From: Porticoccaceae bacterium
GTDB lineage: Bacteria > Pseudomonadota > Gammaproteobacteria > Pseudomonadales > Porticoccaceae
Assembly (NCBI GenBank): GCA_002702725.1
Contig: PABE01000114.1
Location: 35,843 to 99,842, forward strand
Direction of reading: 5' to 3'
Length of the DNA: 64,000 bases
Positions 2 to 63,473 of the stretch are shown here, in pieces. Made by a program: the position numbers and the translations under genes. Position 1 is the stretch's first letter, and each line of letters starts with the position of its first letter. The notes below the pieces were generated by a model. The model made no database searches. It was not told the DNA's origin and saw only the letters and a program-made list of their open reading frames with translations.

Positions 2-400
2 TTCGAATTGCACAAGGTTTTGAAGCTCCGCGATCGCGGATACGACTTCGTCAAGAGTCGGCAGTTCTATTCCCTTGGTAGACTCTCCGTGTTCCATGGG
101 CATGAACTACCGCGCGGACTGACGGACCCCGTAAACGTCGCCCGGGGTGTCTGGAATCGGGTGCGCGAATCGGCGATTGTCAACCACTGGCACCGAACAT
201 CGACTCACGTCGATACCAGCGGTTTGAAAACGCGCACCGATGCCTGCTATAGCATAGGCTGCATGTGCGATATGCAGCCGAACTATGCCCCCGTGAACGC
301 TTGGAACCTCGGCTACGCGGAAGTTGAGATCGGCGAGAAGGGCACTTGGAACGTACAGCTGAAGATTGTCGACCGTGGGCAAGTCTATTCGGTGTGTTGA
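2..400 (+). CDS. metallophosphoesterase-like protein, C-terminal fragment (5' end lies outside the window)
   Basis: The frame is open to the window edge. Motifs VFHGHE and NHWHR align with RFHHGDE and GHWHQ of the minus-strand phosphoesterase at 48613-49722. Confidence 0.5.
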   Translation, partial: FELHKVLKLRDRGYDFVKSRQFYSLGRLSVFHGHELPRGLTDPVNVARGVWNRVRESAIVNHWHRTSTHVDTSGLKTRTDACYSIGCMCDMQPNYAPVNAWNLGYAEVEIGEKGTWNVQLKIVDRGQVYSVC

Positions 401-3578: not shown

Positions 3579-4376
3579 TTGGAAACGCAACTTCTAGACA
3601 AGATGGGGAACGAGATAAAGGTTCCCCCGCGATTCAGCGGAGACGCCAAGAGGTTTGCCGCTCTTGTCTCTTCGCTGGAGCCACATCACTGCGCTTTCCC
3701 TACCGGATATCCGCTTCACCCCGACTCTGGCGAGCCGTGCCGATGCAAGAAGACGTCGGAAGGTGTCTGCAGGCTTCATAGCGAGAACCTTTTACCGCGC
3801 GTCATTAACGACGCACCGAGCGGACGGATTCGTGATGGCCTGATCTCCGCGTTCAAGGACTCGCGGCTGACAGATACTCGTCCGAACATCGCGATCGAAG
3901 AGTTTCTGCTCAGCGAGCGGATGAAAATGATCGAGAACGGCGAGTCGCGCCGTTTCATCGAATATGTCGAATCAGCCACATCTCGGCTTCGAGATTTGTT
4001 TGATGCCATGAAGGCGGCAATCAGCGCGGGTGATCAAGAAGAGTTTGCGAATCTGATGAAGAAGCTCGATCGAGCGATCACCAGCATCAACAAAGTCGTC
4101 GACAACCGACACAAGCATCACTCAGCACTTCGGGAGTTGAGCGATGCCAACGGGTCATCGATCCGGATGAAAGAGACGGCCAGTCGCATCGCGATTAACG
4201 AGCGGCAGGTAATCTCATTCGACACCGCCGTGATCACGATGCGGGAAATGGTCGATCTGTTTCACTTGGCCGTAAACTCCGTCGTGACCAGCAAACAGGA
4301 GCGAAACGAGGTCTATCAGAAACTGTCACACAGCATGTATTCGATCGCCGGTCGCCTAAAGCCGGAGACTCAATAG
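3579..4376 (+). CDS. hypothetical protein; candidate small terminase subunit by position only
   Basis: Its stop overlaps the GTG start of the large terminase. I recognised no motif. An alternative ATG start exists at 3603. Confidence 0.35.
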   Translation: METQLLDKMGNEIKVPPRFSGDAKRFAALVSSLEPHHCAFPTGYPLHPDSGEPCRCKKTSEGVCRLHSENLLPRVINDAPSGRIRDGLISAFKDSRLTDTRPNIAIEEFLLSERMKMIENGESRRFIEYVESATSRLRDLFDAMKAAISAGDQEEFANLMKKLDRAITSINKVVDNRHKHHSALRELSDANGSSIRMKETASRIAINERQVISFDTAVITMREMVDLFHLAVNSVVTSKQERNEVYQKLSHSMYSIAGRLKPETQ

Positions 4377-6412
4377 TGTTTCAGAATTTGATTGACGAGG
4401 CTCGTCAGGAAACGTCGCAGAACTTCCTGACCAAGAGCCTCGACAGTTTCTACAACATCGGCGAAGACGCGCGAGTCGAGCACGCTAGAAAACTGGCCGC
4501 AACGGGAAACCCATTTCCGTTGATTGCTCTGCAGTGGCCCGACGACTTGGTCATCAAAGACAAAAAGCTCGAGCAGTATTTCGAAGGAGAGGTCGGCAAC
4601 CCAGACAATCCTTGCCTGCGGATCGACCCGTGGCAGCGGTTGGTGATTCGCGCGGCATTTGACGTTACTGTCGGTGAGATTGCGATGAAGGGCTGTACGG
4701 GGGCCGGAAAAGGCTTCACGTCGGCGATCGTCGCTAATCTCCTGTTTGACGTCTTCAATCCATGCCGGATCAATGTGACGTCCGAGACGTTCCGTCACGC
4801 CAGTGAGAACCTGTTCGGTGAAATCTCGGTGTGGCGCGACAAGATGTCCAACCCTGGGCCCGGCAATCTGGTCAGCTGCCAGCTCGGCGACACAAAACGT
4901 CACTACATCACCGTCCTAAACCCGAGTCCGCACGGGAAAGGGGAGGCGTTTTCGGGTATGCACTCGGAAATGACCGTCTATTTCTTTGACGAGGCATCTG
5001 GCGTACCTGAGATCCACTACACGAACGCGTTGAAGAACGCGCGGAAGATCTTCGCGTTGTCAAACCCGCGTATTACCGAGGGTTGGTTCCGAGACTTGTA
5101 CCGACCCTTGCGTGGGGAAGGCACAAAGGAGGAGAAGAACGATCGTGAAAACGCGACGAACTATTGTACTGGTCGGATCGGCCGCCGACTTTGCGTGACC
5201 ATTCCCGGCGACGCGTGTGCCAATGTTCGATTCGGCCGGATCAAGAACCCGGTAGCTCCCCGCCGTGGAGTCGTGATCGAAGGGAAAGAGTACGGACCGG
5301 CAGAGCGGATCCCAGACGAAGACTTCGAGAAAGTCAAAGCCCTCGTGCCTCGGCAGATCGACTTGGAGCAATACCAGTCGATCATCGACACGTCAAAAGA
5401 GCCTTGGGAAGTCGAATGCTACGCGCACGCAAGGTTCCCGACGGAAGACCCAGTGCGTCAGGTCATTCTCGGGTCCAATCTGGAGCGACACGTCGAAGAA
5501 TACCGAAGACGGGCTGGACGCATTGCCGTAACATGCTTTGGCCTTGACGTGGCCCGGTCAAAGAGCGGTGACGAAACGATTCTGATGGCAGGCAGTGTTG
5601 ATGGCGTGGCAAGAAAGCATGCCTGGAAAGATGACGACAACATGCGTCATGTCAAGAAGATCTTGCGACTTTGTGAATCGGAGTACGGCATCGATCTTCG
5701 TGACGGAACCAACCCGATTTGCATCGACTACGCGGGGGGATACGGTGCGGGCGTAGGCGACCGGCTACAGGAACTTGGCTGTTGGGTGATCAAGTTCCAG
5801 CCGGCTGGTCGAGCGGTTGTCGAGACCGGCGGCATTTACGTCAACGCCCGCGCTGAGTGGTACATGTTGCTAGGCCGTCGTTTTGACCCAAATGACATCT
5901 GGCAAGAAAAACCCTGGCCTTTTCCGCCGGACGATGAACTGATCGAAGAGTTGACCAGTCCCGTCAAATTTCCGGCTCGAGGCGGAACCGCCTGGCAGAT
6001 CGAGCCAAAGGATGACATCAAGAAACGCCTCGGTCGGTCTCCCGACTCGGCTGACGCTATGGTCTGTTTGTACCGAGCCGTGTTCGAGCTCTATGAGCTT
6101 GAGAACGTCATGCGACAACACAATGAGTATGAAGTCATTGCGGAGGCAGCCACTTCCGATCCAATCGTGTTGGGGCAACATCTTGATAACCCTCGCATCC
6201 GCAGAGCAAACGATCCTGTGAAGACGCCGGAAGAGCAAGAGTATGAACGTGTCGACCCACCGGTCCGGATGACAGAGGGGATTGAGTCACGTCCGATTGA
6301 AGAGATCATCGACGATTTCGCTGACTTTGTCAGCGGATACGAAAGGGGATCGAATCAGCGGGTAAAGCCTCCGACGTTGGACTTCTTTGATAACGATGGG
6401 GACGACTGGTGA
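4376..6412 (+). CDS. terL: terminase large subunit
   Basis: 678 aa. It has a Walker A-like GCTGAGKGFTS and a Walker B-like VYFFDEASG, and sits immediately before the portal gene. Confidence 0.85.
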   Translation: MFQNLIDEARQETSQNFLTKSLDSFYNIGEDARVEHARKLAATGNPFPLIALQWPDDLVIKDKKLEQYFEGEVGNPDNPCLRIDPWQRLVIRAAFDVTVGEIAMKGCTGAGKGFTSAIVANLLFDVFNPCRINVTSETFRHASENLFGEISVWRDKMSNPGPGNLVSCQLGDTKRHYITVLNPSPHGKGEAFSGMHSEMTVYFFDEASGVPEIHYTNALKNARKIFALSNPRITEGWFRDLYRPLRGEGTKEEKNDRENATNYCTGRIGRRLCVTIPGDACANVRFGRIKNPVAPRRGVVIEGKEYGPAERIPDEDFEKVKALVPRQIDLEQYQSIIDTSKEPWEVECYAHARFPTEDPVRQVILGSNLERHVEEYRRRAGRIAVTCFGLDVARSKSGDETILMAGSVDGVARKHAWKDDDNMRHVKKILRLCESEYGIDLRDGTNPICIDYAGGYGAGVGDRLQELGCWVIKFQPAGRAVVETGGIYVNARAEWYMLLGRRFDPNDIWQEKPWPFPPDDELIEELTSPVKFPARGGTAWQIEPKDDIKKRLGRSPDSADAMVCLYRAVFELYELENVMRQHNEYEVIAEAATSDPIVLGQHLDNPRIRRANDPVKTPEEQEYERVDPPVRMTEGIESRPIEEIIDDFADFVSGYERGSNQRVKPPTLDFFDNDGDDW

Positions 6413-6777
6413 TATTTCGGCGGATTTTAGAACGAATTCGACAGCGGCGCAGGCAGCGACAAATCGCCAGAATGAAAAGGTGGAGGGATCAAGACTTCCA
6501 GTTCCTCCGGGGCGAATACGTCAAACTCAAATCGCAGTTCAAAGAGTCAGACAGGGTTCACGAGAGCGAGAAGGCTGTTCTGCGTGATCGTCTGGAGGCG
6601 ACCGAGCAGCAGTCAGAGAAGACTTCCAGGGAGCTTGAGCTCGCGAAGATGGAGAATCAACTTCTCGTGAACGTCATCGAACGTGACCGCCGGAGAGTTG
6701 AAGCGGAAACTGCTGCAGCGACCAGGAAAATCAGCGACGCGATGACGGGCCTTCTGCGTGACGACGGTGGTGATTAG
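6409..6777 (+). CDS. coiled-coil, arginine-rich hypothetical protein
   Basis: GTGA overlap with the terL stop. The sequence is charged and heptad-like. Confidence 0.5.
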   Translation: MIFRRILERIRQRRRQRQIARMKRWRDQDFQFLRGEYVKLKSQFKESDRVHESEKAVLRDRLEATEQQSEKTSRELELAKMENQLLVNVIERDRRRVEAETAAATRKISDAMTGLLRDDGGD

Positions 6778-6843
6778 CGCTTTTAGGAGCGGGTGGGCTT
6801 AAGCAGTATTCTGTAAAGTTGGCCCCAATCACACGGATAGAAA

Positions 6844-8295
6844 ATGTCGAGTATCACCCAACACTCTTTGTCGCGCGCTCGCCAACTAAGCGATGGGTAT
6901 CTAGAAACCATCCATCGTAAACGTGCTGATCGCTCGGGGTCTTCTGGCGGTGCTTACGAGCAAGTCAGCGGGATCGGTCTGTTTGGCCAGCGGTCGAATT
7001 TCTCCAATTCGCGGCAGTTCTATGACGCCTTTCGCGACACAGCGTTTACCGCGATCAGACCGGTCGCTACCCGCTTCGCCCAGCAGCCACTCCGTGTTGC
7101 CGTAACGCCACGCCGCTCGCAACGGACGAGTTTCAGCTCGATGGTGAAGTCGCTTCGCGGCGAAGGTTTCATCGGCAGCGGATTCGAGGGCCGGCAGAAG
7201 AGCTACCGGCGCGCCATGCCGGAGGCCATCAAGCAAATGCTGCCGCCTGACAGCATCGTTCTGGATGAGCACATCGTGACGGAGGCCTTCCGGCGCCCGA
7301 ACATCTGGCACAGCGACTACAGCACTTTGTACAGCGTCGCCGCATCGATGCTGTGTTGTGGTTCGGCTTTGATTACCTGGGACGAGGAAAACCTCTCGGC
7401 CGGCGAGAGCGGAGAAGAGTCCCCCTCCGTGTATTACATTCCAATGCACTGGGTGGAGCCCAAGGAGAACGTTCTCCAAGGCTGGACGATTACTCCGCCG
7501 CACACAGGCGAATCGTTTGATGTCGAGCCTGGCGAATACGTTTACTTCCAGATGCCTGACCCCGGGGATCCATTCAACACCGTTTCGCCGATGCGAGCAG
7601 CTGCCCGCGCAATTAACACAGCGGACAAGATCCACGACGCCAACTACAACGGCCTCCAGAACCTAATCAATCCGAGCTACGCGATCGTCGCCGGCAAGAT
7701 CGAGCAGCCTACCGGTGGCCAGGCCAGGCGGCCGGAACTTCGCGGCGAACAGCGCCGGAAGCTGACCGAGTTGATTAAACGGTATGCCGCCGGTGTCTTG
7801 CGGAACGGTGATCCGATCATCCTCGATGGAATCATCGAAGACGTCAAACCACTCGGTACGGTGCAGCGCGACGTCGACTATTCCGGCGGCAATGCGATGA
7901 CCGAGCGGAAGATCATGCAGGCCTTCGGTGTCAGCCCCGTGGTCGCCGGCTACGCAGAGAACGCGAACCGGGCGGGATCAAATGTTGCGCACGAAGTGTT
8001 CTACGACGTCGTTCTAAACCCACTGCTATTGCAAGCAGGCCGATCTCTCACGCATACGCTTGGTCCGAAATACTCTACGGATCAGTATCGTGTGACCGTC
8101 TACATGGAGTCAGCACAGGTTAACGACCCTGACTCAAAGCTTCGTCGCGTGGCGTTGTTCAAAGACCGATTGAGTGACCAGGAGGCTCGCCGCTTCATGC
8201 GGACAGGTGAGCTCGACATCGAGGATGAGGATAAGACATTTGAGCAAGAAAGGCAGCAACGCCAGCGCGAACAGAACAATCCAGTGGGAAGGTAA
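6844..8295 (+). CDS. portal protein (HK97-family-like)
   Basis: 483 aa, lying between the terminase and the prohead protease. The segment RKIMQAFGVSPVVAGY resembles the conserved portal C-terminal motif. Confidence 0.8.
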   Translation: MSSITQHSLSRARQLSDGYLETIHRKRADRSGSSGGAYEQVSGIGLFGQRSNFSNSRQFYDAFRDTAFTAIRPVATRFAQQPLRVAVTPRRSQRTSFSSMVKSLRGEGFIGSGFEGRQKSYRRAMPEAIKQMLPPDSIVLDEHIVTEAFRRPNIWHSDYSTLYSVAASMLCCGSALITWDEENLSAGESGEESPSVYYIPMHWVEPKENVLQGWTITPPHTGESFDVEPGEYVYFQMPDPGDPFNTVSPMRAAARAINTADKIHDANYNGLQNLINPSYAIVAGKIEQPTGGQARRPELRGEQRRKLTELIKRYAAGVLRNGDPIILDGIIEDVKPLGTVQRDVDYSGGNAMTERKIMQAFGVSPVVAGYAENANRAGSNVAHEVFYDVVLNPLLLQAGRSLTHTLGPKYSTDQYRVTVYMESAQVNDPDSKLRRVALFKDRLSDQEARRFMRTGELDIEDEDKTFEQERQQRQREQNNPVGR

Positions 8296-8323
8296 TCCCG
8301 GCGATCAGTTCTATGAATCCGGT

Positions 8324-8527
8324 GTGTTTGTCGGCACGCCTGAAGGCGACCTGAACGAGAGGCGGCAATTGGCTCAGGCCTTACATGGTTTGTATGCCGC
8401 GATCACAGAAAACCTTGGCAAAACCGGCAAATACGCGGAGATCGGATTTGCCGTCCAGATCGTTGACGGCAAGCTCAAGATCTGCGAGGCGTCAACAAAA
8501 AGGACATTCAAGCCAGCAAAAGAATAG
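8324..8527 (+). CDS. possible small ORF (67 aa) downstream of the portal gene
   Basis: GTG at 8324 in the frame of ORF 8174-8527. The upstream part of that ORF overlaps the portal gene, and I recognised no motif. Confidence 0.25.
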   Translation: MFVGTPEGDLNERRQLAQALHGLYAAITENLGKTGKYAEIGFAVQIVDGKLKICEASTKRTFKPAKE

Positions 8528-8645
8528 CGCTTTTTGACTTAAGCGTATGACTTTTGCAAATATCAGATTTGATGCGAATCGCATTTGATCCGAGGTTAGC
8601 ACAAGCAACCCGGTAGCTGCACCAAGCGGCTGCCGGGTTTTTTCG
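8521..8645 (+). promoter_or_regulatory. conserved promoter-box-terminator cassette, copy A
   Basis: It shares three blocks with 21547-21680: TAGCGCTTTTTGAC (8525-8538), TTTGATCC, and the 20-mer GAGGTTAGCACAAGCAACCC (8592-8611). TTGACT lies at 8534-8539 and a -10-like AATAT at 8559-8563. Confidence 0.6.
8607..8644 (+). terminator. intrinsic terminator inside cassette A
   Basis: AACCCGGTAGC pairs with GCTGCCGGGTT (one G-T wobble), followed by TTTTTT. It ends 2-14 nt before the protease start codon. Confidence 0.65.
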
Positions 8646-8657: not shown

Positions 8658-10163
8658 ATGGCACTCATTGACTTGATTAAACACGCACGCAGTGGCAATG
8701 GACTCATTGCTACCGCTGCCCCGTATCTCAAGGAAATGCAAGCCTGTTTGAAAGGCGAAGGTGCCTGCCCAGCGAAACTGTTCGGTCTCGATAGCGCTGA
8801 TGCCTGGAAGAAGGCTCTGGAAGAGGCCGACGAGAAGCTCACATACTGCGATCCAAACGGCGGGATCAAGAGCGTCAAGTCAGAGAAGGCCGAGCTGAGT
8901 GAAGGTTCGATCCTCGACTACGACGCGATCCTGTCGACAAGTCAAAAAGACCGAGACGGTGACATTCTTCGCACAGAGGGCATGCAGCTTGAGCCTGGCA
9001 TGCCGCTGCTTTGGCAGCACATGTGGAACCAGCCGATCGGCAAGATGCTCAGCATCGTGGAGCAGAACGACCGCCATGTCGTTTGCAAATACGCCGTTGC
9101 TGATACGGAAATGGGACGCGATGCCGCGAAGCTAATCCGCATGGGCGCCCTTCGAAAAAGTCATGGGTTCATGCCAATCCCCGGCTATTTCGAAATGATC
9201 GACGTCGAAAAGTCGGCTGATGGATCAATGACGCCTGCCGGCTATGACATCAAACGCTGCTCGGTGTACGAGTCCAGTGTCGTGAGCATTCCGGCCAACG
9301 CCGGCACACGCATCTTGCGGACCTACGAGAAAGAAGCTTCCGCAATCTTCACGGCGGTTGAGCAAAAGCAGCTTGAGAGTGAAGTGTTCAGCCGATGGGC
9401 CAAGGGCCTGTACGACAACCGTCAGCGGTTCTTCCCTGGAGCCGATTTTGGGCGACTCGAAAAGATGATGACCGAGATGAAAAAGACGGTCGAGGATATG
9501 GTGACTGCCAAGACTCCTGGGCAGAAGGACATGCAGTCCGACAGCCGTCCGAAGTGCAGCGAGTGTGAAGACGGCTATTGCGATGAAAGCGGCACGTGCG
9601 ACCACTGCGGTCATGTCATGCCGAAGTCTGGAAAGTCGGCAGGTCAACCCGCGTTCATCAAGTCATTTGACGAATCGGTTGCGATGACCAAGTCCTACGG
9701 GATGCCAGATTCGCTGCCTGGTTCATTCGAATCCGTTCAACGCGCCCTCAGTCGAAAGGCTGAAGACTACCTCGAGGATAACGGGGTCGATGTCGGCGAC
9801 TACGAGTACGTAACCCTGATCGCCACTTTCAGCGACAGTGCGATCGTCTGCAAGCGGAACTACCGCAAAGACTCTGAGTACTGTTACCGCCTCATGTGGG
9901 AAATGACCGAAGGCAAGCCGGCATTTACCGGCCAGCCCGAGAAGGTCGAGATCGAAGCCACCGTGGTCAGCAAGGCACTCGACGCCAGCGGCGCCCGCAT
10001 CAAAGAGATGGGTGCTGACGCCTACGCCAAGAAGCTTGTCAGTTCGGCTTTCGCCGACGGCGAGCTGAGCGATGAGACCAAGAAATCAATCAACACGCTC
10101 GCGGCGCTGATCAACCAGCCAGAAGAGCAAACCAACCCATTGACCGCTTTGTTTGGCGGTTAA
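8658..10163 (+). CDS. HK97-family prohead protease fused to a long C-terminal (scaffold-like) extension
   Basis: Protease motifs seen: DRDGDILR, PLLWQHMWNQPIG, SHGFMP and YESSVVSIPANAG. The ATG at 8658 is preferred over the TTG at 8646. A Cys/His cluster lies at 9555-9614. Confidence 0.8.
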   Translation: MALIDLIKHARSGNGLIATAAPYLKEMQACLKGEGACPAKLFGLDSADAWKKALEEADEKLTYCDPNGGIKSVKSEKAELSEGSILDYDAILSTSQKDRDGDILRTEGMQLEPGMPLLWQHMWNQPIGKMLSIVEQNDRHVVCKYAVADTEMGRDAAKLIRMGALRKSHGFMPIPGYFEMIDVEKSADGSMTPAGYDIKRCSVYESSVVSIPANAGTRILRTYEKEASAIFTAVEQKQLESEVFSRWAKGLYDNRQRFFPGADFGRLEKMMTEMKKTVEDMVTAKTPGQKDMQSDSRPKCSECEDGYCDESGTCDHCGHVMPKSGKSAGQPAFIKSFDESVAMTKSYGMPDSLPGSFESVQRALSRKAEDYLEDNGVDVGDYEYVTLIATFSDSAIVCKRNYRKDSEYCYRLMWEMTEGKPAFTGQPEKVEIEATVVSKALDASGARIKEMGADAYAKKLVSSAFADGELSDETKKSINTLAALINQPEEQTNPLTALFGG

Positions 10164-10215: not shown

Positions 10216-11853
10216 GTGATCAAAGTGACGAAGGCGCTTGCTGCGCACGCGGCCGAACATCTCGGCCTCGATTCTGATCTTGCCAAGGACTACAAGGCAA
10301 ACGAAGACGCAATCCGCAAGTGCGTTTCGGAAGCCTTGACCGAAGGTAAGTTGGAAATCGGACAACTGCAAAAGTTGATGGAAACGCCTGCCGAAGACGA
10401 GGCCAGCACGAAGGCCAAGCAGATGATCGGCGAGGCTGTCGGTGAAGCAATGGCTCCGTTTGCGAAGGGCCTGAGCGATTTGACCGATACCCTCAGCAAA
10501 GCGTTTGGCTCCGGCCAAGCGGCCACGGGTGAGACCAAGGAAACCAAGGGCGAAGGCGCTGGCGCCAAGGCCTATGGTGCGGCCGGTTCGAACCAAGGCG
10601 GAGAATCGACCCCTCCCCGCGTGAAGTGTGTCTCCGAACTGTACGACCGCACGACCAAGTCGGCGACTCGTCCCAACGGTATGCCGTACGCGATCAAGGG
10701 CGACGACGACGGAACTCCCGGTCGTGACCTGATGCACCCCAGTCAGTTTGACAAGGCTGTGTCGGGTGCGTGGTTGAAGTTCATGATCAACCGCCAGGCC
10801 AAAGTGGACAACCACAGCGTGCCGAACGGTCTGAAAATGACCGATCACGACTGGGCGTTGGTCAAGTATGCGGCCAACGAGATGCCGTTCCTCGGCCCTG
10901 TCGGCATGAAGAGCGAAGACGACGACGCCAGCTCCGGTTGGGCCAAGGGAACGCGGCTCAACGACATGCAGGTCAAGACGTTGCTTGACGACGCGACCTC
11001 CGGCGGTTTGGAAGCAGTTCCAATCGTGTTCGACGACATCGCCATTCTGACCCCGTTGCTCAACGGCGAGTTGTTCCCCTACGTCGATGTCCGCACCACG
11101 ACCCGTCGTCGTGTGGAAGGCTTCGCGATGGGCAACCCTTCGGTCTACTGGACGGCTGAAGGGTCCACCCCGACCGTGTTCAGCACCGACGACTTCATCT
11201 CGGCCTTCGACACCAACGTCCACCCCTGTACGGGAACGATGGAAGTCGGCCTGGACTTCGAGGCGGATTCGCCCGTCGGCATCGCCGATCTGTTGATCAG
11301 CCGCTACGGCCAGCAAATGGCTACCGAGTTGGACAACGTCATCGCGACTGGCTCCGGCACCGGCCGACCGCTTGGTATTTTCAACACGGTTGGGTTGACC
11401 TCGCTCAGCACCGCGAACGGAACCGGTGGTCCCTGGACGATCGGCGACATCGACAAGCTGTATTACGGCGTCGATGCGGCCTTCCGCCAGGAAGCCGGCA
11501 ACCGATTGGTCTTCGTCGGCAACGACGTGACCTACCAGCGTCTGCGTTCGATCCAAGTCGGAACCTCCGACCAGCGCCGGGTGCTCGGAATGAGCTACCT
11601 CGGAACCGGTCGTCCGATGATCAACGACGTCATGTATGCCCGCAACACGGGGATCGGAAACGGTTCGTTGGCAGCCTGCTGCTTGAACCGCTACGTCATC
11701 TACCGCCGGGCAGGTTTCTCGGTTCGCCGCGAAACCGGTGGTACGACCTTGGCGGCCAAGAACTTGAGCCAGTACATCTTCCGCATGCGGGTAGGTGGCC
11801 AGCTCAACCACAGTTCGGCCGCAGTCATCTACGACGGTGACGGCCAAACCTAA
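10216..11853 (+). CDS. major capsid protein (HK97 fold)
   Basis: The GTG start is preceded by AGGAGA. The gene follows the prohead protease. The segment LLDDATSGGLEAVPIVFDD is typical of HK97-type capsid proteins, and the N-terminal part is delta-domain-like. Confidence 0.85.
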   Translation: MIKVTKALAAHAAEHLGLDSDLAKDYKANEDAIRKCVSEALTEGKLEIGQLQKLMETPAEDEASTKAKQMIGEAVGEAMAPFAKGLSDLTDTLSKAFGSGQAATGETKETKGEGAGAKAYGAAGSNQGGESTPPRVKCVSELYDRTTKSATRPNGMPYAIKGDDDGTPGRDLMHPSQFDKAVSGAWLKFMINRQAKVDNHSVPNGLKMTDHDWALVKYAANEMPFLGPVGMKSEDDDASSGWAKGTRLNDMQVKTLLDDATSGGLEAVPIVFDDIAILTPLLNGELFPYVDVRTTTRRRVEGFAMGNPSVYWTAEGSTPTVFSTDDFISAFDTNVHPCTGTMEVGLDFEADSPVGIADLLISRYGQQMATELDNVIATGSGTGRPLGIFNTVGLTSLSTANGTGGPWTIGDIDKLYYGVDAAFRQEAGNRLVFVGNDVTYQRLRSIQVGTSDQRRVLGMSYLGTGRPMINDVMYARNTGIGNGSLAACCLNRYVIYRRAGFSVRRETGGTTLAAKNLSQYIFRMRVGGQLNHSSAAVIYDGDGQT

Positions 11854-11889
11854 TCGGTAACGGCGGACTGAGCCCATCCGCCGTGTTCA

Positions 11890-11927
11890 CAGCCCCCGGG
11901 GTTTGCTCCACCCTGGGGGCTGTTTTT
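11890..11927 (+). terminator. intrinsic terminator after the capsid gene
   Basis: CAGCCCCCGGG pairs with CCCTGGGGGCTG, followed by TTTTT. A second hairpin, CGGCGGA/TCCGCCG, lies at 11861-11883. Confidence 0.7.
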
Positions 11928-16341: not shown

Positions 16342-16598
16342 TTTGGTGTTTGTGCCGGCCAGCAGGCATCGCAGGGGTGTCGGGTTACGGCATGCTCCCT
16401 TCAGAGGCTTCGCAGCTGACATTGGCGCAAGTCATGAATCTGCTGCGGCCAGCTGACGAGCACCGAAAAGGAAAGCCAAAACGCGTTGGAAAACGTGAGA
16501 GGTTGGCCTATCAACAGGAGCTTGAGGATTTGAAGTCTGCGGCGGACGATCTCCGCCTTGCGATGGAAGCAATAGAGAGAAAGAACAATGCCCAGTGA
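16233..16598 (+). CDS. -1 frame extension of the tail chaperone (gpT-like part of a putative G-T fusion)
   Basis: This ORF is in the -1 frame relative to 15856-16341 and overlaps it by 109 nt. It ends inside the tape-measure start region. Confidence 0.45.
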   Translation: MDGRLWDLGGPYESVDDDGTGNGRKDGPAGFSINDLIWCLCRPAGIAGVSGYGMLPSEASQLTLAQVMNLLRPADEHRKGKPKRVGKRERLAYQQELEDLKSAADDLRLAMEAIERKNNAQ

Positions 16599-18786
16599 AG
16601 GCGAAATCGGAACTGGGATTGTCAAGATCAAGGTGGACTTCACCTACCTTGACAACCAACTCCGTCGCGTCAACCGCAAAATCCAGTCGTTCAAGTTCGC
16701 GCCGATCCAGCTGAAGCTGGATAACAGCCGAATGATCAAGGACTTGGAGCGGTTTGGCAAAGTCCTCTATCGCTTTAAGGGTGCAGCAGAACGTCCGATC
16801 CACGTCCGCGTGGACACCTACAAAGCCAAGCAGGATCTGCGGCAACTGCGTGAGTCTTATCGCCGGGCGGCGCAAGGCCCGACTTTTCCGACACGCGTTC
16901 CTGGCGCAAATCCAGGCATGGCTCCAGGCAATCGCGGCGGCATTGGTCGTATTGCAGCCGGCGTGTTTGGCGGAAACATTGCATCGAATCTCGGCATGCG
17001 TGCCGCTGGAATGGCCAGGAACGCGGCCGTGTCGTTTGTTGGTGGCGGCCTTCAGCTCAACGCTGAAGTCGAAGCCTACAACAACTCTCTCGGCATTCTG
17101 CTGAAGGACCAAGAAAAGGCCAACAAACTCTTCCGTGAATTGCAGAAGATGGACCTTGAGCTGCCGGTTGATATCGGCATGCTAGCCCAAAACGCACAGA
17201 AGCTTGCTGGTGCGGGGTTTGATCCGAACAAGATCGAAGGCATGATGCGAACGATCACGGATGCCGCATCGATCAGCCCGATGGGGACCAACGAAGGGAC
17301 GTCTCGTCTCGTCCGCGCTCTCACGCAGATGCGTGGTAAAGGCAACATCCAGTTGGAAGACCTCAACCAGATCGCGGAACTCGGTATCCCGATCCGTCAA
17401 TTGATCCAACAGCAGTTCGGCATGTCTGCACAGGATCTTGGCGAGCGGACTCGTGACGGTTCGATGACGGTTGACCAAGCCATTGAGGGGATTCTCGACG
17501 GTTTCGACAGTAGCTTCGGAGGAGCACTCGAAGCGAGGGCCGGAACATTTAGCGGCATGATCGATCAGGTCAACGATCGTTTCAAGGCTCTGCGCCGCGA
17601 GATGATGGAGCCGTTCTTCGAGGCATTGCGATCTCAGCTTGAGGATCTGACTGGCTGGATGGCATCGGCCGAATTCGACAACCTCACTAAAAGTCTCGAA
17701 AACCTCGGTCGTGTTGTCAGCGAAGTTGTCCGAAGAAACACCGGTGGTGGCGGACCGAACAGTGAGGAGGGCTGGTTGAACTGGGGTGCTAGGAACCTCA
17801 CGGCTGGTTTTCAGTTGATGACGATGGATGAAGGTCTAGGCTACGCGCCTGGCGATCCGCGACAAGCACGCACCGAAGACATCGACAAATACCTGCGGCA
17901 ATTCATCCGTGGCGAGGAGATTTCTAAAGCCCAGAGCAAGATGCTGCAGATCGCCTTCGAACAGCAGCAACAATTCCAGAATGCCTGGCACGTAGCCAAA
18001 CGGCGTGGCGACAAAGAGGACATGGCCCGCCTTGAGGCGATTGATACTGAAGTAGGCACGTACGCCAAAGAGGAAAGGGCGGCCGAGGCAAGGCAAAAAC
18101 GGGAAGAGCAGGAATCCAAACGTGCCCAGATGACTTCTCAGGCCATCGAGCGTTTTGCTGGTTCATTCGGGGCGTTAGGGATTCGAGCCGAAGGTCGAAC
18201 CGGCATTTACAACGCATTGGCCTCTGCTGTGCAAGGGTTCGGCGGCGGAGAGGCTCCAACTCCGATGCAACAGGGCCTCAACGGCGGGATCACGACGGCA
18301 ATCAACGGGCTCAACAGCGCCGTCGGAAAAGCGGTCGACTTCGGCAAGAACTGGGGCAAAGGGGCCTCTGAAGCCTACAAAGAACGCCTGATCAACGAAG
18401 GCAAGAGCGAGAACCAGTTTGCTCGAAGCGAGTTTCAGAATCGCCTGGACAAGATGATCGCGGAAAATCCCGCGATCGCAGAGCGGTTGAAGAACACTGA
18501 GTTCTTCTCTGAGATGGTTCAGAACAAGGACGGCACGTTCGATACCAAGTTCAGCGTCGGAAAGCTTGGAAAAGGCGGTCCAGGAATGGCGCAGTTCACC
18601 GGTTTCGAGAGCCTCAACAAGATGCTGCAAGGTCAGGTCGACCAGGCCAACATGACGAAGTACGCGGAGGAGACGGCCAAAGCTGCTAAAGATCTGGTCG
18701 ATGGAATGAACAAGAACAATGACAAGCAGGACAAAGTGATTGAACTGCTCGGGAAAAAACCTGTTGGCATGGTGGGGGAAGGATGA
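16588..18786 (+). CDS. tail tape measure protein
   Basis: 732 aa and alpha-helical. The segment LVRALTQMRGKGNIQLEDLNQIAELGIPIRQLI matches the conserved tape-measure domain. Confidence 0.85.
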   Translation: MPSEGEIGTGIVKIKVDFTYLDNQLRRVNRKIQSFKFAPIQLKLDNSRMIKDLERFGKVLYRFKGAAERPIHVRVDTYKAKQDLRQLRESYRRAAQGPTFPTRVPGANPGMAPGNRGGIGRIAAGVFGGNIASNLGMRAAGMARNAAVSFVGGGLQLNAEVEAYNNSLGILLKDQEKANKLFRELQKMDLELPVDIGMLAQNAQKLAGAGFDPNKIEGMMRTITDAASISPMGTNEGTSRLVRALTQMRGKGNIQLEDLNQIAELGIPIRQLIQQQFGMSAQDLGERTRDGSMTVDQAIEGILDGFDSSFGGALEARAGTFSGMIDQVNDRFKALRREMMEPFFEALRSQLEDLTGWMASAEFDNLTKSLENLGRVVSEVVRRNTGGGGPNSEEGWLNWGARNLTAGFQLMTMDEGLGYAPGDPRQARTEDIDKYLRQFIRGEEISKAQSKMLQIAFEQQQQFQNAWHVAKRRGDKEDMARLEAIDTEVGTYAKEERAAEARQKREEQESKRAQMTSQAIERFAGSFGALGIRAEGRTGIYNALASAVQGFGGGEAPTPMQQGLNGGITTAINGLNSAVGKAVDFGKNWGKGASEAYKERLINEGKSENQFARSEFQNRLDKMIAENPAIAERLKNTEFFSEMVQNKDGTFDTKFSVGKLGKGGPGMAQFTGFESLNKMLQGQVDQANMTKYAEETAKAAKDLVDGMNKNNDKQDKVIELLGKKPVGMVGEG

Positions 18787-21546: not shown

Positions 21547-21680
21547 AGATTAGCGCTTTTTGACCTATCTGGTTTATCTGCGAATATGACGTTTGATCCA
21601 TAGAGATATTCGAGGTTAGCACAAGCAACCCGAAATTCTGCCAGTGCGCAGGGTTTCGGGTTTTTTCGTGCCTTGAGGGG
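21547..21680 (+). promoter_or_regulatory. conserved promoter-box-terminator cassette, copy B
   Basis: It carries TAGCGCTTTTTGAC (21551-21564), TTGACC (21560-21565), AATAT (21583-21587), TTTGATCC and the 20-mer GAGGTTAGCACAAGCAACCC (21612-21631). Confidence 0.6.
21627..21667 (+). terminator. intrinsic terminator inside cassette B
   Basis: AACCCGAAA pairs with TTTCGGGTT, followed by TTTTTT. It ends 19 nt before the ATG at 21686. Confidence 0.65.
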
Positions 21681-21685
21681 TTCAG

Positions 21686-21886
21686 ATGAACAAAGCAAAG
21701 GTTTGGAAATTCGTAAAGGGTGCGTTGATCGCATCCGCTGGCGCCGCCCTGGCTTATTTGGGCGGACAAGTAATTCCAGCGTTGGAAGTAGCTGGTACGT
21801 CGGCCACGATCGTCGCGATCGCTTCGGCATTGGTGAACCTTGGAAAGGTGATCCTGCAGAAGATCGACGACGGGGCCGCACAGTAA
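21686..21886 (+). CDS. small two-TM membrane protein (holin-like by size, topology and position)
   Basis: 66 aa with two hydrophobic stretches (GALIASAGAALAYLGG and TSATIVAIASALVNL). It is the first gene after cassette B. Confidence 0.5.
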   Translation: MNKAKVWKFVKGALIASAGAALAYLGGQVIPALEVAGTSATIVAIASALVNLGKVILQKIDDGAAQ

Positions 21887-22436: not shown

Positions 22437-22867
22437 ACTTAAACAAAACCGTTGGGCTGGTTTTGGCATTGAGCTTAGCGTTCCTCGCCGGGCAGTTCTT
22501 CAGCGGCAGTGGCGGCTTCTCGATTCCGGACTTTGGCGGTGTCATTCCGATCGTCGAACCGAAGGTCAACGGCGAAGGCTGGTTGGTCATGGTCGACGAG
22601 CTAAGTGATCCGCTGACGGTGACTGTCGATGCCGCCAGGAACATGGAGTGGCAAGAGAAGCTGACCAGCAAAGAGATCAAGTTCGCACGCTACGACGATG
22701 ACGACGCCGTGGCGGAGAGCTACGTCAAAGCGCTCAGCGAAAAAGTACCAGGCGTGTTGCTTATGGAAGACGAAGCCGACGGCAGGAAGGTCGTGGCGAC
22801 AAAGGCTTTGACCAAAGACGACACGCTCAGTTCGATCACCGCATTTGTGGACGCCCATACCAAATGA
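22433..22867 (+). CDS. membrane-anchored or secreted protein
   Basis: ATGA overlap. The N-terminal anchor is VGLVLALSLAFLAGQFF. Confidence 0.5.
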   Translation: MNLNKTVGLVLALSLAFLAGQFFSGSGGFSIPDFGGVIPIVEPKVNGEGWLVMVDELSDPLTVTVDAARNMEWQEKLTSKEIKFARYDDDDAVAESYVKALSEKVPGVLLMEDEADGRKVVATKALTKDDTLSSITAFVDAHTK

Positions 22868-23745
22868 CGAAAGTCGGCGAAATCGTAAAGACGGCTCCTG
22901 GCCAGCTTGATGAAATCATCGGGCCAGAGGGTAACCGGATCAAACTCGGGCTGCGGAAGCCGCCAAAAGAGTTGCCGGTCACATACGCGCCGTTGGTCGG
23001 GGCTTTGCCTCGCCTGTTGACCTACGATGAGATTAAGGCAAGGTGCGAAAGCGTCGACCGCCGCCCCTCCCGTGATCGATGGGGCCCAGACACGATCAAG
23101 GACCAAGATGGCCGAGGAGCCTGCCAAGGGTATGCGTCTGCCGGCATGGCCGAGCGTGTCCGAGAATCTAGCGGTCAGAAGCGAGTCGTCTTGTCTGGCG
23201 ACTTCTCTTACTCGCTTGCCAATGGCGGCCGAGACCAGGGGTCTGCTTTGTCGCGCGGCTTCATGGCGGCTACCCAGGTCGGCTATGCCCCTGAAGACAC
23301 GCCCGGCCTGAAGCGATGGGAATACCGCAAATCGCACATGCCGCAGGCTGCGTTCGCGGCTGCTAGCCGGTTCAAGGGTATCGACGGATTCTACTGCGAA
23401 ACGCAGCAGGAATTCTTCACGGCTCTTGCCCTCGGCATGATCGGCGTGATCGCCGTACACGTTGCCGGCGCTTTTTCGCAACTCGACAACTACGGGATCA
23501 GTCAAGGCGGCAACGGCGATGGTAACCACGCCGTGTGTGCGGACGACTTGGTCTACGACCGTCGGCTCGGCGGATTCAAGATCGACTCACCAAACAGTTG
23601 GAAGCGGACTTGGGGGGATAACGGACGTTGTTACTACACGTTCGAACGTCACCTTCGCCGCACTATCGAAGTTCACAAGTTCTACGTCTTCCCGATTCTT
23701 ACGCAGGATCCACAAGGCGATAACCCACCTCAGGTGCTCGTATGA
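22864..23745 (+). CDS. papain-family (C1-like) cysteine peptidase; candidate lysis enzyme
   Basis: Three papain-type segments are present: QDGRGACQGYASAG (Cys box), GDGNHAVCADDLVY (His box) and NSWKRTWGDNGRCYY (Asn/Trp box). Confidence 0.65.
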   Translation: MTKVGEIVKTAPGQLDEIIGPEGNRIKLGLRKPPKELPVTYAPLVGALPRLLTYDEIKARCESVDRRPSRDRWGPDTIKDQDGRGACQGYASAGMAERVRESSGQKRVVLSGDFSYSLANGGRDQGSALSRGFMAATQVGYAPEDTPGLKRWEYRKSHMPQAAFAAASRFKGIDGFYCETQQEFFTALALGMIGVIAVHVAGAFSQLDNYGISQGGNGDGNHAVCADDLVYDRRLGGFKIDSPNSWKRTWGDNGRCYYTFERHLRRTIEVHKFYVFPILTQDPQGDNPPQVLV

Positions 23746-31787: not shown

Positions 31788-32372
31788 ATGTCACTCCTGA
31801 CAATGCTGTGCTGTTGCGACGAATCGAGCAGTTCTTCTTCATCCAGCAGTTCATCAAGTTCGAGCAGTAGTTCGTCGAGTTCTAGCAGTTCGTCCAGCAG
31901 CTCGGAAAGCTCAAGCAGTTCTTCGTCGTCAAGCTCAAGCAGCGATTCATCAAGCAGCAGTTCGTCTTCGTCGAGCAGTTCGTCGTCAAGCTCCAGTAGC
32001 AGTTCGTCGAGCAGTTCGAGTTCATCGAGTTCGAGCAGCTCAAGTAGCTCAAGCAGTGACTCGTCTAGTAGCTCGTCCAGCGATTCGCTCAGCAGCGAGA
32101 GTGCCAGCGAAAGCACAAGCTCTGAATCTGTCTCGTTAAGCGACAGCGTGCCTAGCGAGGAGGATCCTTGCGCCTGCCCAAGCCCTCCTGTTGTTGTGCC
32201 CGGTGGACCACAGCCTCCATGCGGCGATGTGTATTTCGGCCCATGCGTGGCAACGCTTCCAGGCGAAAACTGCGACAGCCTGCAATGTACGTTTGAGTTT
32301 GATGGAACGAGATGGAGATTGATCCTTAACTGCTACGGCGAGAAGGTAGAGGAGATCCCAAGTTGCCCATAA
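31788..32372 (+). CDS. poly-serine repeat protein with a Cys-rich C-terminal domain
   Basis: AGGAGAG lies 7 nt upstream of the ATG. The product is MSLLTMLCCCDE, then a tract of about 125 residues that is mostly Ser with sparse D/E, then a Cys-rich ~60-aa domain. Confidence 0.7.
   Translation: MSLLTMLCCCDESSSSSSSSSSSSSSSSSSSSSSSSSSSESSSSSSSSSSSSDSSSSSSSSSSSSSSSSSSSSSSSSSSSSSSSSSSSSSDSSSSSSSDSLSSESASESTSSESVSLSDSVPSEEDPCACPSPPVVVPGGPQPPCGDVYFGPCVATLPGENCDSLQCTFEFDGTRWRLILNCYGEKVEEIPSCP
31824..32160 (+). repeat. low-complexity serine-coding tract
   Basis: Near-continuous Ser codons using all six codons (AGC, AGT, TCG, TCA, TCT, TCC) in an irregular order. Confidence 0.9.
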
Positions 32373-38167: not shown

Positions 38168-41100
38168 ATGGTTGATCTTCTCCGAGCTGCTAGGCTAGGC
38201 ACTACGCCAGCCATCCAGGACAACGAAAAAAAGCAGCAGCGACTAACTCCGATCAGGGCGGCTACTAACCGCGCTGAGCCAGATCAGTCTATCTTATCAA
38301 GTCTTGCTAGTACAGGCTTGAGTGGACTGGCGAAAGTCGGGAACTTTTTGGACCTTCCTGGTTCGGTCGTGCGCGATGTCAGCACCTGGCTCCCAGGCGG
38401 AATCGAAGCGCAGAATCCAGTCGATCAGTTTCTTTCCCCATTCACTTCAGAGAACCGTGTCTCCGGCGAAGACATGCTCCAGTCAGCAGGTCTTGCTGGC
38501 GAGAACACTTGGGGCGGATTGGCTGGTGGAATCGCAACCGAAATCGCGCTTGACCCTTTGACTTATTTGAGTTTTGGCGCGTCGGCTGTCGGAAAAGCTG
38601 GAACAGCCGCTGGCAAGGCTGGCCTCACTAAGAACGCCAAGTCGGTCGCGAACGAACTTGCTGGCCGAACTCTAGGCAAGGAGTCAGGCAAAAGGCTTGG
38701 TGCTACCAGCGCGAGGCAAACGCTAACGCCGCGCAATCTGATTGACGCTGCTGCGGATCCAGCGGAAGCGATGAAGCGATTCAAGGTGGCTGGTGGCACT
38801 GATGCGATGCTCGATGAGAAGCTCGGTGGAGTTGCGAAGTTTTCTGTTCCATTCTTGTCGAAGCGATACGGAGATACTGTCCCCGCCCTGCGCGAACGAG
38901 TCCTGGGGACTACCGACCTGACGCCTTCGCAGCTCGGCGCTAAGCCTTGGATGAAGGGTGGCGATGGCCCAAGCGGTCCCGATGCAGGTAGTGCCGCAAA
39001 GCCAAAGTCACCTCTGGATCCGAATGCTGACACTGGCCTGAAGAACCCGACGCCTGAAGAGTTCTCGGCTATCTCTCCGAACCACGCTCGGTTCAACCAA
39101 GAACTAGATGGTCTTCAACAGAGTGGTATTCTTGACGACGCTGACTCTGAGATCCTTCGCGGAATCTTTAGCCAATCAGACCTTGGCGGATTCGATCGAG
39201 TTTACTTCCGTCCAGTCAAAGAGATCTCGCCTGAGGCTACTCCCGAGATCGTGTCTGCATACGGCGCGAATGTTCCAGAAATTGGCGGTGCTGCAACAAA
39301 GACTCCCGATGGCGGATTTGATATCCAGCTTTCTCAAAAGGCGCTGGCTGATGGAAACTACGTCGACACCGGAATTGACACTCTCGTTCATGAGATCGGC
39401 CATGCTTTTTTGGAGACAACGAAGAAGCCACAGGGCGAGGCTGGCGTTGATGTTGTTTCTGAGTTCGACAATCTGATCAAAGACGGGACTCTCGGTCGAT
39501 ACTTCTCCGACAACTACGGCCCTGAGAAGGCAGCATACTTCGGACAAAATCCGCACGAGGCATTCGCTCAACTGTTCGCCGACTCGGTTATCAAGCGCAA
39601 GGGCCAAGAGATGCCCAAGCCAATCGAGTCATTCTTGGGCAAGGTGCGCAAGTTTGTTTCAGACATGCTCTCAAAGGTCCTTGGAAACAAGCAGCTGAGC
39701 GGTGAGGCAAGGCTGCGAACCGATGCGATGATTGACTTGGTCGGAGGATTTATCGGTCCAGATCAATACAAGTCGATTATCGGAAAGGCTGACTCTGCAT
39801 CGTCCAAACTGGATTTCTACAAGCCAGCTACGAGAAAGATGCCTGGCATCGAGCCTGATGCCACTGGGATGTTCAGTCAAGTCGCCAGATCTCTTGACGC
39901 CATATTCCGCGAGTCGAGTTCGCTTCCTGCTGACCAGATGCTTGCTAGGCTGAGAAAAATGCCTGGAGTCAAAGAGGAGGAGATTGCTGACCTTGGTCTT
40001 GACAAGCTCAGTGGAAAGCGACTCAGTCGAAATGACATCACTGACCACCTCAGCAAAAACATGCTCACCATGGAGGAGGCGATCAATACTGGAGACCGCG
40101 CTGGTTTCAGTGATCTTGCAGTTCCTGGTGGCGATGATGGAACTTACCGAGAACTTATCCTCAAGGCCAATGCAGGTGGAAAGCGAATTGAGGGCGGCGC
40201 CGATACTCACTGGATGGGCGATGATTCGATTGCGCATATCCGGCTTGACGATGTTTCGCTTGCGAACGGAGAGAAGATTCTGCGAGTCAATGAGATCCAG
40301 AGCGATTGGATCCAGGGGCTGCGCAAGTTCGGAACGAAAACCGAAGATTTGCAAAGCGAAGCGAAGTCCATCAAGAAGGAAATGTCTGGCAACGCAGTTG
40401 AGCTTTTTCTCACAAGGCAGCAGATCAAACAGCTTGGAGAAAACGCACCCCCAGAGTTGCTTGCAAAAGAACAGTCATTGACTCAGAGTGTCGAGCAAGC
40501 AAGCTCTCGCATAACTCAGATCGGAAAGATGCCAGCCGATGCCCCGATGAAGAAGTCGTGGGACAGCATGGCCATCAAAAAGATCTTCGACTATGCAGTC
40601 GCAAATGGGTATGACGGAGTTTCATTCGTCGACGGCCAGGATATCGCAAAGGTTGTTCAAGGTCCTGCTGATGCACTAAGTGGCTTCTATAACAAGGTTC
40701 AAACTCTCGCCGGAAAAATTGCAAAGAAATACGGAAGCGGAAAGGTATCGAACGAGAAGCTGGCCGGTCAATTCATCAACGACAGCGAGGAATTGCGCCG
40801 TGGTGTGACGTTCCCTGTCACGGACGAGATGCGAAACACGATTGGCTCAGGTGGACAGCCGAGATACAAACCAGCGGAAAAAGTGGCCGAAGCCGCCAGC
40901 GCTGCTAAACAAGGAGCAACTAAGGCGGCATCGTACGCAAACGACATGGCAAGGAGAGCGTTGTCGTCAGTCGGTGAGCTTGCGCTAGATAAAGATCTTG
41001 GTGCTGCTGTCGGCGCCACAATGGACACTGTTGGAGGATTCTTCAAAAACTCTGCGCCAGTGAGATACCTTCGCGCCACCATCACCCCAGAGATGCTTGG

Positions 41101-63386: not shown

Positions 63387-63401
63387 GTTGCTTCCATTGA
63401 G

Positions 63402-63473
63402 CAGGGTGCTAGGGAATCGAACCCCAATTGTCCGCTCAGAAGGCGGTTGTCTTATCCATTAGACGAGCACCCC
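63402..63473 (-). tRNA. tRNA-Arg (anticodon UCU)
   Basis: Hand fold of 72 nt: GGGGTGC-TC-GTCT-AATGGATA-AGAC-A-ACCGC-CTTCTGA-GCGGA-CAAT-TGGGG-TTCGATT-CCCTA-GCACCCT-G. There is one A-A mismatch at the top of the anticodon stem, and no CCA is encoded. Confidence 0.8.

Follow-up and report, generated by a model that had tools for sequence, protein, structure and literature searches.

A hairpin fused to the terminator ahead of late genes in uncultured siphovirus-like phages: a candidate antitermination switch

What sets the timing of late genes is understood in just a few model phages, and to our knowledge the known antiterminators N, Q, put, p7 and gp39 all act on RNA polymerase processively. The systems in the literature that come nearest to the one considered here are the Q-type units, including that of BrrG in the gene transfer agent (GTA) of Bartonella (10.1101/2024.11.20.624540), RNA-polymerase-binding antiterminators such as p7 and gp39 and, apparently, the bipartite conAn system of conjugative elements (PMC8191782). 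Full-text literature searches returned no described phage late-gene switch of a type in which a hairpin overlaps the terminator. Here we analyze a 64,000-nt stretch of contig PABE01000114.1 (positions 35,843 to 99,842, forward strand; assembly GCA_002702725.1, deposited as Porticoccaceae bacterium), hereafter the window, which is most of an uncultured siphovirus-like phage genome. It carries two cassettes of ~120 bp each, copy A (8525-8643) and copy B (21551-21666), in which a promoter-like box is followed by a conserved hairpin, P1ext, whose 3' arm is also the base of a terminator stem. As an RNA motif the element is new, and it varies a regulatory principle that is already known. Its description draws on sequence elements, their conservation, the covariation of the hairpin, its overlap with the terminator and the fold energetics.

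Common to both copies are a -35/-10 promoter-like box, an identical 20-mer (GAGGTTAGCACAAGCAACCC, at 8592-8611 and 21612-21631) and a final GGGTTTTTTCGT, and the GC-rich hairpins between them are unrelated; all of these had been pointed out in an earlier note on this DNA, together with a shared block TAGCGCTTTTTGAC, and all were located in both copies. At up to three mismatches, the 20-mer has just these two matches in the window (0.00 expected from 100 shuffles). The features of copy A are the following:

8525 to 8538, + strand: shared block TAGCGCTTTTTGAC, overlapping the -35 hexamer
8534 to 8563, + strand: promoter-like box, TTGACT (8534-8539), an 18-nt spacer, then TGc and AAATAT (8555-8563)
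8571 to 8585, + strand: small 5' leader hairpin GAUGCG-AAU-CGCAUU, from RNA folding
8590 to 8613, + strand: hairpin P1ext (CCGAGGUUAGCACAAGCAACCCGG), best fold of the 24-mer -9.2 kcal/mol, covariance model 44.3 bits, E = 1.2e-10
8607 to 8643, + strand: predicted intrinsic terminator, 14-bp stem (8607-8639) and T6 (8638-8643), fold -26.7 kcal/mol

and those of copy B:

21551 to 21564, + strand: shared block TAGCGCTTTTTGAC
21560 to 21587, + strand: promoter-like box, TTGACC (21560-21565), a 16-nt spacer, then TGc and GAATAT (21579-21587)
21610 to 21633, + strand: hairpin P1ext (UCGAGGUUAGCACAAGCAACCCGA), covariance model 42.2 bits, outermost pair U-A where it is C-G elsewhere
21627 to 21666, + strand: predicted intrinsic terminator, 15-bp stem (21627-21662) and T6 (21661-21666), fold -22.6 kcal/mol

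The spacing of TTGACT/TTGACC ahead of AAATAT/GAATAT agrees with what the earlier note had reported. Its further shared block TTTGATCC is found in both copies, but is not a collinear block because its distance to the 20-mer differs, and the TAGCGC part of TAGCGCTTTTTGAC belongs to this phage only, the relatives retaining TTGAC alone. On the + strand of the window, the promoter-like pattern occurs in copy A, copy B and one intragenic site only. Transcription of copy A would start at ~8570, a position derived from that of the -10 box only; the small leader hairpin, whose sequence is not kept in the other copies, begins at about this point. In both copies a GC-rich stem-loop is directly followed by a U-tract, as in intrinsic (Rho-independent) terminators. 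The T-tract of copy A ends, as had been noted, 2 nt ahead of a TTG and 14 nt ahead of ATG 8658, and the latter is likely the start of the protease gene, since the relatives begin M(A/S)LIDL.

The earlier proposal had been made to depend on conservation of the 20-mer in related genomes, and exact or variant copies indeed occur in six related uncultured phages, which contribute seven further copies and bring the total to nine distinct copies in seven phages. Their prohead proteases are 47-62% identical, one relative being linked by a small upstream open reading frame (ORF; 33% identical). The exact 20-mer also precedes the protease gene of one IMG/VR contig, where the terminator stem is a third, different one and the protease is ~50% identical to that of the window (51% in global, 47% in local alignment). 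Three copies, which come from two phages, have the same 20 nt. The same contig holds a second copy, B' (GAGGTTAGTACCTACAACCC), syntenic with copy B, both lying at the end of the tail module and ahead of small membrane proteins. Homologues of the protease from a large protein collection, with their contigs, gave four more lineages:

R2 (locus L099): 20-mer variant GTGGTTAGCAAAAGCAGCCC
R3 (locus L101): 20-mer variant GTGGTTAGCAACAGCAGCCC
R4 (locus L102): 20-mer variant GAGGTTAGCAACAGCAACCC
R5 (locus L103): 20-mer variant GAGGTTAGCAAGAGCAACCC

The remaining copy, R6 (L113), found via a homologue of the small upstream ORF, has an apical stem 2 nt longer (CCGAGGTTAG-TT-ATAT-AA-CAACCCGG) and ends with its contig inside the terminator; the results on terminator overlap and folding cover the eight complete copies. 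The pattern TTGAC-N-N16-18-NANNAT-N14-34-GGTTAG fits all nine distinct copies. The promoter layout TTGAC[T/C/A]-16..18-nAnnAT is present in 9/9, with TGn before the -10-like hexamer in 5/9, and the eight complete copies run on to GGG[T/C]TTTTTTCGT and a ribosome-binding site. The spacers between -35 and -10 are unrelated among copies, as are the 10-25 nt of leader before P1ext between lineages; the distance from P1ext to the -10 box ranges from 16 to 31 nt, and its position relative to the terminator is constant. The anatomy proposed earlier, with a putative promoter, a short leader and a strong predicted terminator flush against a late gene, is thus present and conserved in related phages, as far as sequence can tell.

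Variation in the 20-mer concentrates at four central positions and, with two more nucleotides on each side, the segment becomes the 24-nt hairpin P1ext, of the form CC-G-A-GGUU-A-GC/loop/GC-AACC-C-GG. Its pairs are C-2:G22, C-1:G21, G1:C20, G3:C19, G4:C18, U5:A17, U6:A16, G8:C15 and C9:G14, with A2 and A7 bulged and a 4-nt loop. In each complete copy, the 24-mer has this as its minimum-energy fold (-6.8 to -9.2 kcal/mol), and in the nine-sequence alignment 82/82 stem cells pair, against 18-46% in a control with the 3' partners slid. C9:G14 is replaced by U:A in two copies and C-2:G22 by U:A in copy B (three cells with double compensatory changes), U5:A17 becomes U:G in R2 and R3, and one base inserted in each arm of R6 (a 2-nt symmetric insertion) makes an extra U:A pair. 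The loops differ (ACAA, AAAA, AACA, AAGA, ACCU, AUAU). One in 500 column shuffles reached the observed covariation score, and the covariance model, of the kind that the earlier note had advised, scores both copies of the window. Support from covariation is good but not overwhelming. Rfam 15 does not know the hairpin: in the whole window only a tRNA-Arg reaches the gathering threshold, and permissive scans of both cassettes gave only matches with E > 0.1, on the terminator. P1ext stays near-invariant in its stem across phages despite the 47-62% identity of their proteases, and because stem and both bulges are near-invariant while the loop is free, a sequence-specific recognition of the lower stem is suggested.

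In every complete copy, the terminator stem begins at A16 of the 20-mer and overlaps the 3' arm of P1ext by 7 nt (8607-8613 in copy A). The 20-mer, which had been taken as a mere conserved box before a terminator, is therefore a hairpin with covariation of its own, and its 3' arm doubles as the base of the terminator stem, which makes the element an antiterminator/terminator pair. The shared segment AACCCGG pairs with CCGGGUU just 5' of the U-tract (AGCCCGG with UCGGGCU in R2 and R3, AACCCGA with UCGGGUU in copy B); because one and the same stretch is the 3' arm of P1ext and the basal 5' arm in the terminator stem, an RNA that forms P1ext cannot also form the lowest 7 bp of the terminator. A22 of copy B pairs with U-2 in P1ext and with a U in the 3' arm of the terminator, and G17 of R2 and R3 pairs with a C in the terminator (GGGT to GGGC) and forms a wobble with U5 in P1ext. 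Changes in the shared segment are thus matched on both partners, as one would expect if the two helices exclude each other. The overlap is kept throughout, even though the upper terminator stems of different lineages are unrelated. When the RNA is folded from the inferred start up to, and excluding, the 3' arm of the terminator, P1ext is the best fold in 8/8 complete copies; once the short RNA is complete (56-79 nt), the terminator has the advantage, by 5.1-10.4 kcal/mol. The fold energies are -6.8 to -9.2 kcal/mol for P1ext and -17.5 to -26.7 kcal/mol for the terminator. With P1ext held, the leftover hairpin ends 7-11 nt before the U-tract, and from what is established about intrinsic termination a hairpin that far from the U-tract does not terminate.

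The late region (1-44000, + strand) has three strong terminators only, namely those of the two cassettes and a third behind the capsid gene (11889-11923). From U-tract to start codon there are 14 nt in A (to 8658) and 19 nt in B (to 21686), and each gap has a ribosome-binding site. There is no room for a promoter behind these terminators, and the protease, capsid and post-B genes therefore need read-through; because of this lack of promoter space, regulated read-through would be the natural reading of the anatomy.

We propose, at a probability of roughly 45%, that the cassettes combine a late promoter with a hairpin-dependent, RAT/terminator-type antitermination switch (RAT, ribonucleic antiterminator) served by a sequence-specific factor. 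Each cassette would be the entry of a late transcription unit, with a host-sigma70-type promoter (a good -35 and a weak extended -10), then a leader of ~10-25 nt, the 24-nt P1ext and a strong terminator with which AACCCGG is shared. By default, the terminator would displace P1ext and RNA polymerase would release an RNA of ~55-80 nt, keeping off the protease and capsid genes (A) and the genes for lysis-like membrane proteins (B). A sequence-specific factor bound to P1ext, most likely a phage-encoded RNA-binding protein made earlier in infection, would prevent the basal 7 bp of the terminator from forming; the leftover upper hairpin would then lie 7-11 nt from the U-tract and the polymerase would enter the late genes. 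The same switch could serve polymerases that come from the upstream terminase-portal operon. Inferred in this scheme are an active promoter, termination at the hairpin, a factor of the kind described, and the timing. A more specific version, in which a marine siphovirus clade uses a dedicated phage RNA-binding protein of a new family to clamp the double-bulged hairpin and block the overlapping terminator in a passive, RAT-type manner, seems possible to us and is put forward tentatively.

The main rival takes P1ext as a nut-like recruitment hairpin for processive antitermination, in which a protein rides the polymerase past later terminators and the overlap is secondary. The phage switches that are understood (lambda N and Q, and the Q-like BrrG of the Bartonella GTA, 10.1101/2024.11.20.624540) are processive, and the two sites per genome each head a long gene block, like nutL and nutR. 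In addition, the terminator at 11889-11923 has no promoter behind it and must be passed for the 10 kb of head-completion and tail genes. This last point is blunted, as siphoviruses commonly need no antiterminator for part of their transcription to pass a post-capsid terminator. A recruitment site, moreover, needs neither the overlap nor the zero spacing that are kept here though terminators have been replaced, the recognition features lie in the bulged lower stem with the loop free, which is the opposite of boxB, and the window showed neither a boxA nor a protein like N, Q or NusG; we therefore regard processive use of P1ext as rather doubtful. The three readings that follow are less likely than this rival. 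P1ext might work without any factor, as a leaky attenuator or insulator, forming first, delaying the terminator and letting through a fixed fraction of polymerases, maybe tuned by polymerase speed, NusA/NusG or nucleoside triphosphates, thus balancing the local promoter and upstream transcription. That P1ext is the best nascent fold in all complete copies, that the energy gap is moderate (5-10 kcal/mol) and that no regulator gene was found in the window would all suit this unlikely reading, which appeals to structure alone and leaves unexplained a near-invariant stem with both single-A bulges among phages with ~50% identical proteins and replaced upper terminator stems.

Each cassette having its own predicted promoter and terminator, with 20 nt identical in three copies from two phages, one could also see in them stand-alone genes for two sibling small RNAs of ~55-80 nt that act in trans (for instance by targeting a host mRNA, sponging up a protein or mimicking a host RNA), their position being incidental; the short PR'-tR' transcript of Shiga-toxin (Stx) phages, which works as a small RNA (PMC7547250), is a precedent. 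But essential, highly expressed genes that have a strong terminator 14-19 nt ahead of their start codon and no promoter in between would be silenced without read-through, the conserved sequence is mostly base-paired stem and offers no single-stranded seed, no complementary target was found within the window, and the exact 20-mer is absent from 185,579 species genomes, which makes this account quite improbable. In a variant of it, the short RNA would be a functional by-product of the switch, as is StxS in Shiga-toxin phages, and the short RNA of the cassettes could likewise have a function of its own besides. Very improbable, finally, is that the 20-mer serves as a site in double-stranded DNA for a Q-like loader or late activator and not as an RNA structure. 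The layout is like that of lambda PR'-tR', the 20-mer lies ~10-50 nt from the inferred start, and Q families are too diverse for Pfam to exclude one (10.1101/2024.11.20.624540); yet complementarity survives the substitutions (with a U-G pair and a symmetric insertion), which cluster in the loop, the two halves of the site are unequal owing to the extra bulged A, anything from 16 to 31 nt lies between the site and the -10 box, and on inspection no -10-like pause element stood out at a conserved position.

Several points weigh against the RAT-type switch that we prefer. The covariation comes from nine related sequences and ~4 independent events. Promoter and terminator function are extrapolated from general bacterial rules. 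The conserved post-capsid terminator, with neither a P1ext-type hairpin nor a promoter behind it, fits a processive mechanism better. Among the 87 called ORFs of the window, Pfam at E <= 1e-3 found no CAT/PRD (CAT_RBD), ANTAR, N, Q, NusG-like, sigma or RNA polymerase domain, although Q-like folds can escape sequence searches; the same protease, however, also occurs on a 100-kb contig, and the window may be only part of the genome. As to candidates for the factor, Pfam and PHROG scans of all called ORFs gave no lead, and a PDB sequence search with four small upstream ORFs gave no match. The small ORF gpS (about 75-95 aa), kept in all seven element-bearing phages, belongs to a family with 7 representatives among 1.8 billion proteins and with no known domain, and its AlphaFold model made without alignment is unusable (pLDDT 54); it also occurs without the element in two more distant lineages (L112 and L114), so its role as the factor is not supported.

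Other explanations were dropped in the course of the analysis: a phage RNA polymerase promoter, as no such polymerase was found and the site is in the late region; a preQ1-type riboswitch, for which there is no Rfam signal; a leader peptide, as GAGGU is not followed by a start codon and two copies have GUGG in place of GAGG; a phage-borne antisense partner, of which none was found in the window; and a mimic of a CRISPR repeat, the 20-mer having no exact genomic match.

A partial third match to the element, GATTAGCGCTTTT, had been reported ahead of the portal gene, and is indeed present at 6772-6784. The 12-mer ATTAGCGCTTTT has 3 matches in the window at up to one mismatch, where 0.19 are expected. 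Its third site, 6773-6784, lies just past a stop codon and is followed by CTTAAGCAGTAT, which resembles CTTAAGCGTAT of copy A. The site has no TTGAC, hairpin or terminator and no match to the covariance model, and the TAGCGC block is absent from the relatives; it is hence not a copy of the element, and may be a phage-specific site or a remnant.

Beyond the seven phages, the exact 20-mer has 0 matches in the species genomes searched, and the 12 matches of an 18-mer scan of the Joint Genome Institute (JGI) metagenomes are due to chance, all being without hairpin or terminator context. A relaxed pattern (GGTTAG-N6-CAACCC-N18-40-GGGTTTTTT) run on viral contigs and genomes returned the known relative, a loosely similar hairpin beside a terminator at locus L095 and two matches in metagenome-assembled genomes of Anaerolineae, the latter intragenic and considered chance. 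The P1ext covariance model found no additional copies in the window (filters off) and 49 related loci, nor a P1ext hairpin in 39 more distant protease relatives, and the 20-mer at up to five mismatches is absent from all 80 protease loci. Several distant protease relatives do place a terminator directly ahead of the protease gene; a terminator-like hairpin in this position is seen in L010, L014, L016, L017, L018 and L020. In L020 (IMGVR_UViG_3300006899_000036, ~3760-4000), a near-consensus promoter (TTGACA-17-TACACT) precedes a structured leader of ~115 nt closed by GGGCCGGGCGGA...TCCGCCCGGCCC and then TTTCGTTTT. This suggests that control of the head operon by leader and terminator may be wider than the P1ext hairpin family. 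The L095 site (IMGVR_UViG_3300017692_000002, - strand, ~409-463) is intergenic, in an otherwise unrelated viral contig, and consists of GGTTAGCCTAGCCAACC fused to a terminator (AACCCCGTAGA...TCTACGGGGTTTTTT), with the same GGTT...AACC/terminator overlap but lacking a promoter box; the likeness may be due to chance or to distant kinship.

The + strand of the window carries late genes over 1-43966 and the - strand early and replication genes from 44231 onward. The genes around the cassettes are:

4376 to 6412, + strand: terminase
6844 to 8295, + strand: portal
8240 to 8527: gpS, the small ORF between the portal gene and copy A
8658 to 10163, + strand: prohead protease/scaffold fusion (Peptidase_S78), the gene behind copy A (PHROG matches; Pfam PF04586 and PF05065 on homologues)
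10216 to 11853, + strand: major capsid protein, next after the protease/scaffold gene (PHROG matches, Pfam on homologues)
16588 to 18786, + strand: tape measure
21686 to 21886, + strand: first gene behind copy B, a 66-aa protein (ORF translation)

The 66-aa protein has two apparent membrane-spanning segments and is holin-like by composition only; GAGGGG lies 6 nt upstream of its ATG. Behind it come further membrane-anchored proteins and a weak match to a papain-like peptidase (22864-23745), and we would infer from these a lysis-like module after copy B. A megablast of 6 kb around copy A against INPHARED (the GenBank phage collection) gave no match. The phage is marine, since DNA identical over protease and element sits on TARA-labelled marine metagenome scaffolds and on other marine metagenome contigs.

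Two conserved hairpins follow the capsid gene in all relatives (11866-11923 in the window, 10264-10364 in L099, and in L101, L102, L103 and L104). GAGCCC forms the loop of the first; the second, which is the strong post-capsid terminator, has a conserved loop GGTTTGCTCC(A/G)CC and the ribosome-binding site of the next gene directly behind it, with no promoter between. That these loops are conserved suggests a role beyond simple termination. Of the sigma70-like promoter sites on the + strand, the one that matches best (TTGACC-16-TATACT, 717-744) could drive the upstream operon with genes for a helix-turn-helix protein, PAPS-reductase-like and ParB-like proteins, terminase, portal and gpS. Between the late and early modules, the direct repeat AAAAACCTTGACTT(A/G)TCTT occurs four to five times, ~100 nt apart and in the orientation opposite to that of the surrounding genes (44131-44965, + strand; a weaker copy at 45753), each followed by an A/C-rich, G/T-poor tract such as caaccaaacgaaacataacgcaac; the repeats resemble a series of promoter boxes of the -35/UP type that lack a clear -10, and possibly drive A/C-rich non-coding RNAs. 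The late strand ends with a 1932-aa ORF (38168-43966) for which the PHROG search gave no match, and the early region ends with a tRNA-Arg (anticodon TCT; 63401-63473, - strand). The ORF at 31788-32372 has dense in-frame TCGAGCAGTTC-like repeats with periods of 18-24 nt at 31824-32096; a similar AGC/TCG repeat run in the relative L106 (4780-4839) gives a poly-Ser-like tract.

If true, the RAT-type switch would add a different logic to the developmental control of phages and would suggest that abundant marine phages, so far uncultured, have an RNA-binding regulator still to be discovered. At its size, the cassette can be synthesized, and could then serve as bait for the factor or as a portable genetic switch. 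It would also let annotators recognize where late operons begin in this clade.

How the element stands to the known systems depends on which of its parts is compared. Layout and expected default are those of the lambdoid PR'-qut-6S RNA-tR' units (Q; BrrG of the Bartonella GTA, 10.1101/2024.11.20.624540), to which the earlier note had likened it: a constitutive-looking sigma70 promoter, a short leader and a terminator ahead of lysis or head genes, with a short terminated RNA expected by default and late genes that need read-through. The analogy fails at qut, which is a DNA site in or next to the promoter, whereas the conserved element here is an RNA hairpin fused to the terminator. A qut would show as a conserved DNA element at a fixed distance from the promoter, and only P1ext is conserved, behaving as an RNA helix and lying 16-31 nt away from the -10 box; the copies differ in their promoter spacer, there are two units per genome instead of one, and the Pfam matches of the 87 ORFs include no Q-family protein. 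NANNNT strings, a pattern too weak to decide on a -10-like pause element, are found in the leaders at no common position. StxS, too, is a short RNA that ends at a late terminator as the default product (PMC7547250), and the cassette RNA could likewise have a function; for the latter, no Hfq-type single-stranded seed and, within the window, no target was found.

With lambda N/nut the cassettes share a small hairpin shortly after the promoter and two sites per genome, ahead of terminators and long operons. Lambda boxB, however, has a conserved GNRA-like pentaloop on a plain 5-bp stem where P1ext has a variable loop and a conserved bulged stem, and the cassette has neither boxA, of which no conserved block is found across the relatives, nor the spacing from the terminator seen in nut. 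Nor is it a put-type RNA, the other possibility that had been raised. HK022 put, which is processive and factor-free, is likewise a cis-acting RNA just past the promoter that defeats terminators, in two copies per genome, but put is a two-stem RNA of ~65-70 nt without terminator overlap and P1ext a single hairpin of 24 nt. In mechanism the element would be like the RAT of BglG, SacY and LicT, which works by protein-stabilized antitermination at a single terminator: the 3' arm of a weaker hairpin, whose lower stem carries conserved bulges, equals the 5' base of a stronger terminator, the weaker hairpin forms first and needs stabilizing, and the conserved sequence in both implies a specific binder. 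A less stable antiterminator hairpin overlapping the 5' arm of the terminator is indeed found in all eight complete copies. P1ext has 24 nt versus ~29 nt in RAT, the setting is phage late genes versus sugar operons, and the ORFs of the window include no CAT-PRD antiterminator protein. To the RAT consensus, P1ext seems to bear only a loose likeness (GG-UU...GCAA-CC), short of a match. The element thus resembles RAT switches in its proposed working and lambda PR'-tR' in its genomic role, and is a member of neither family.

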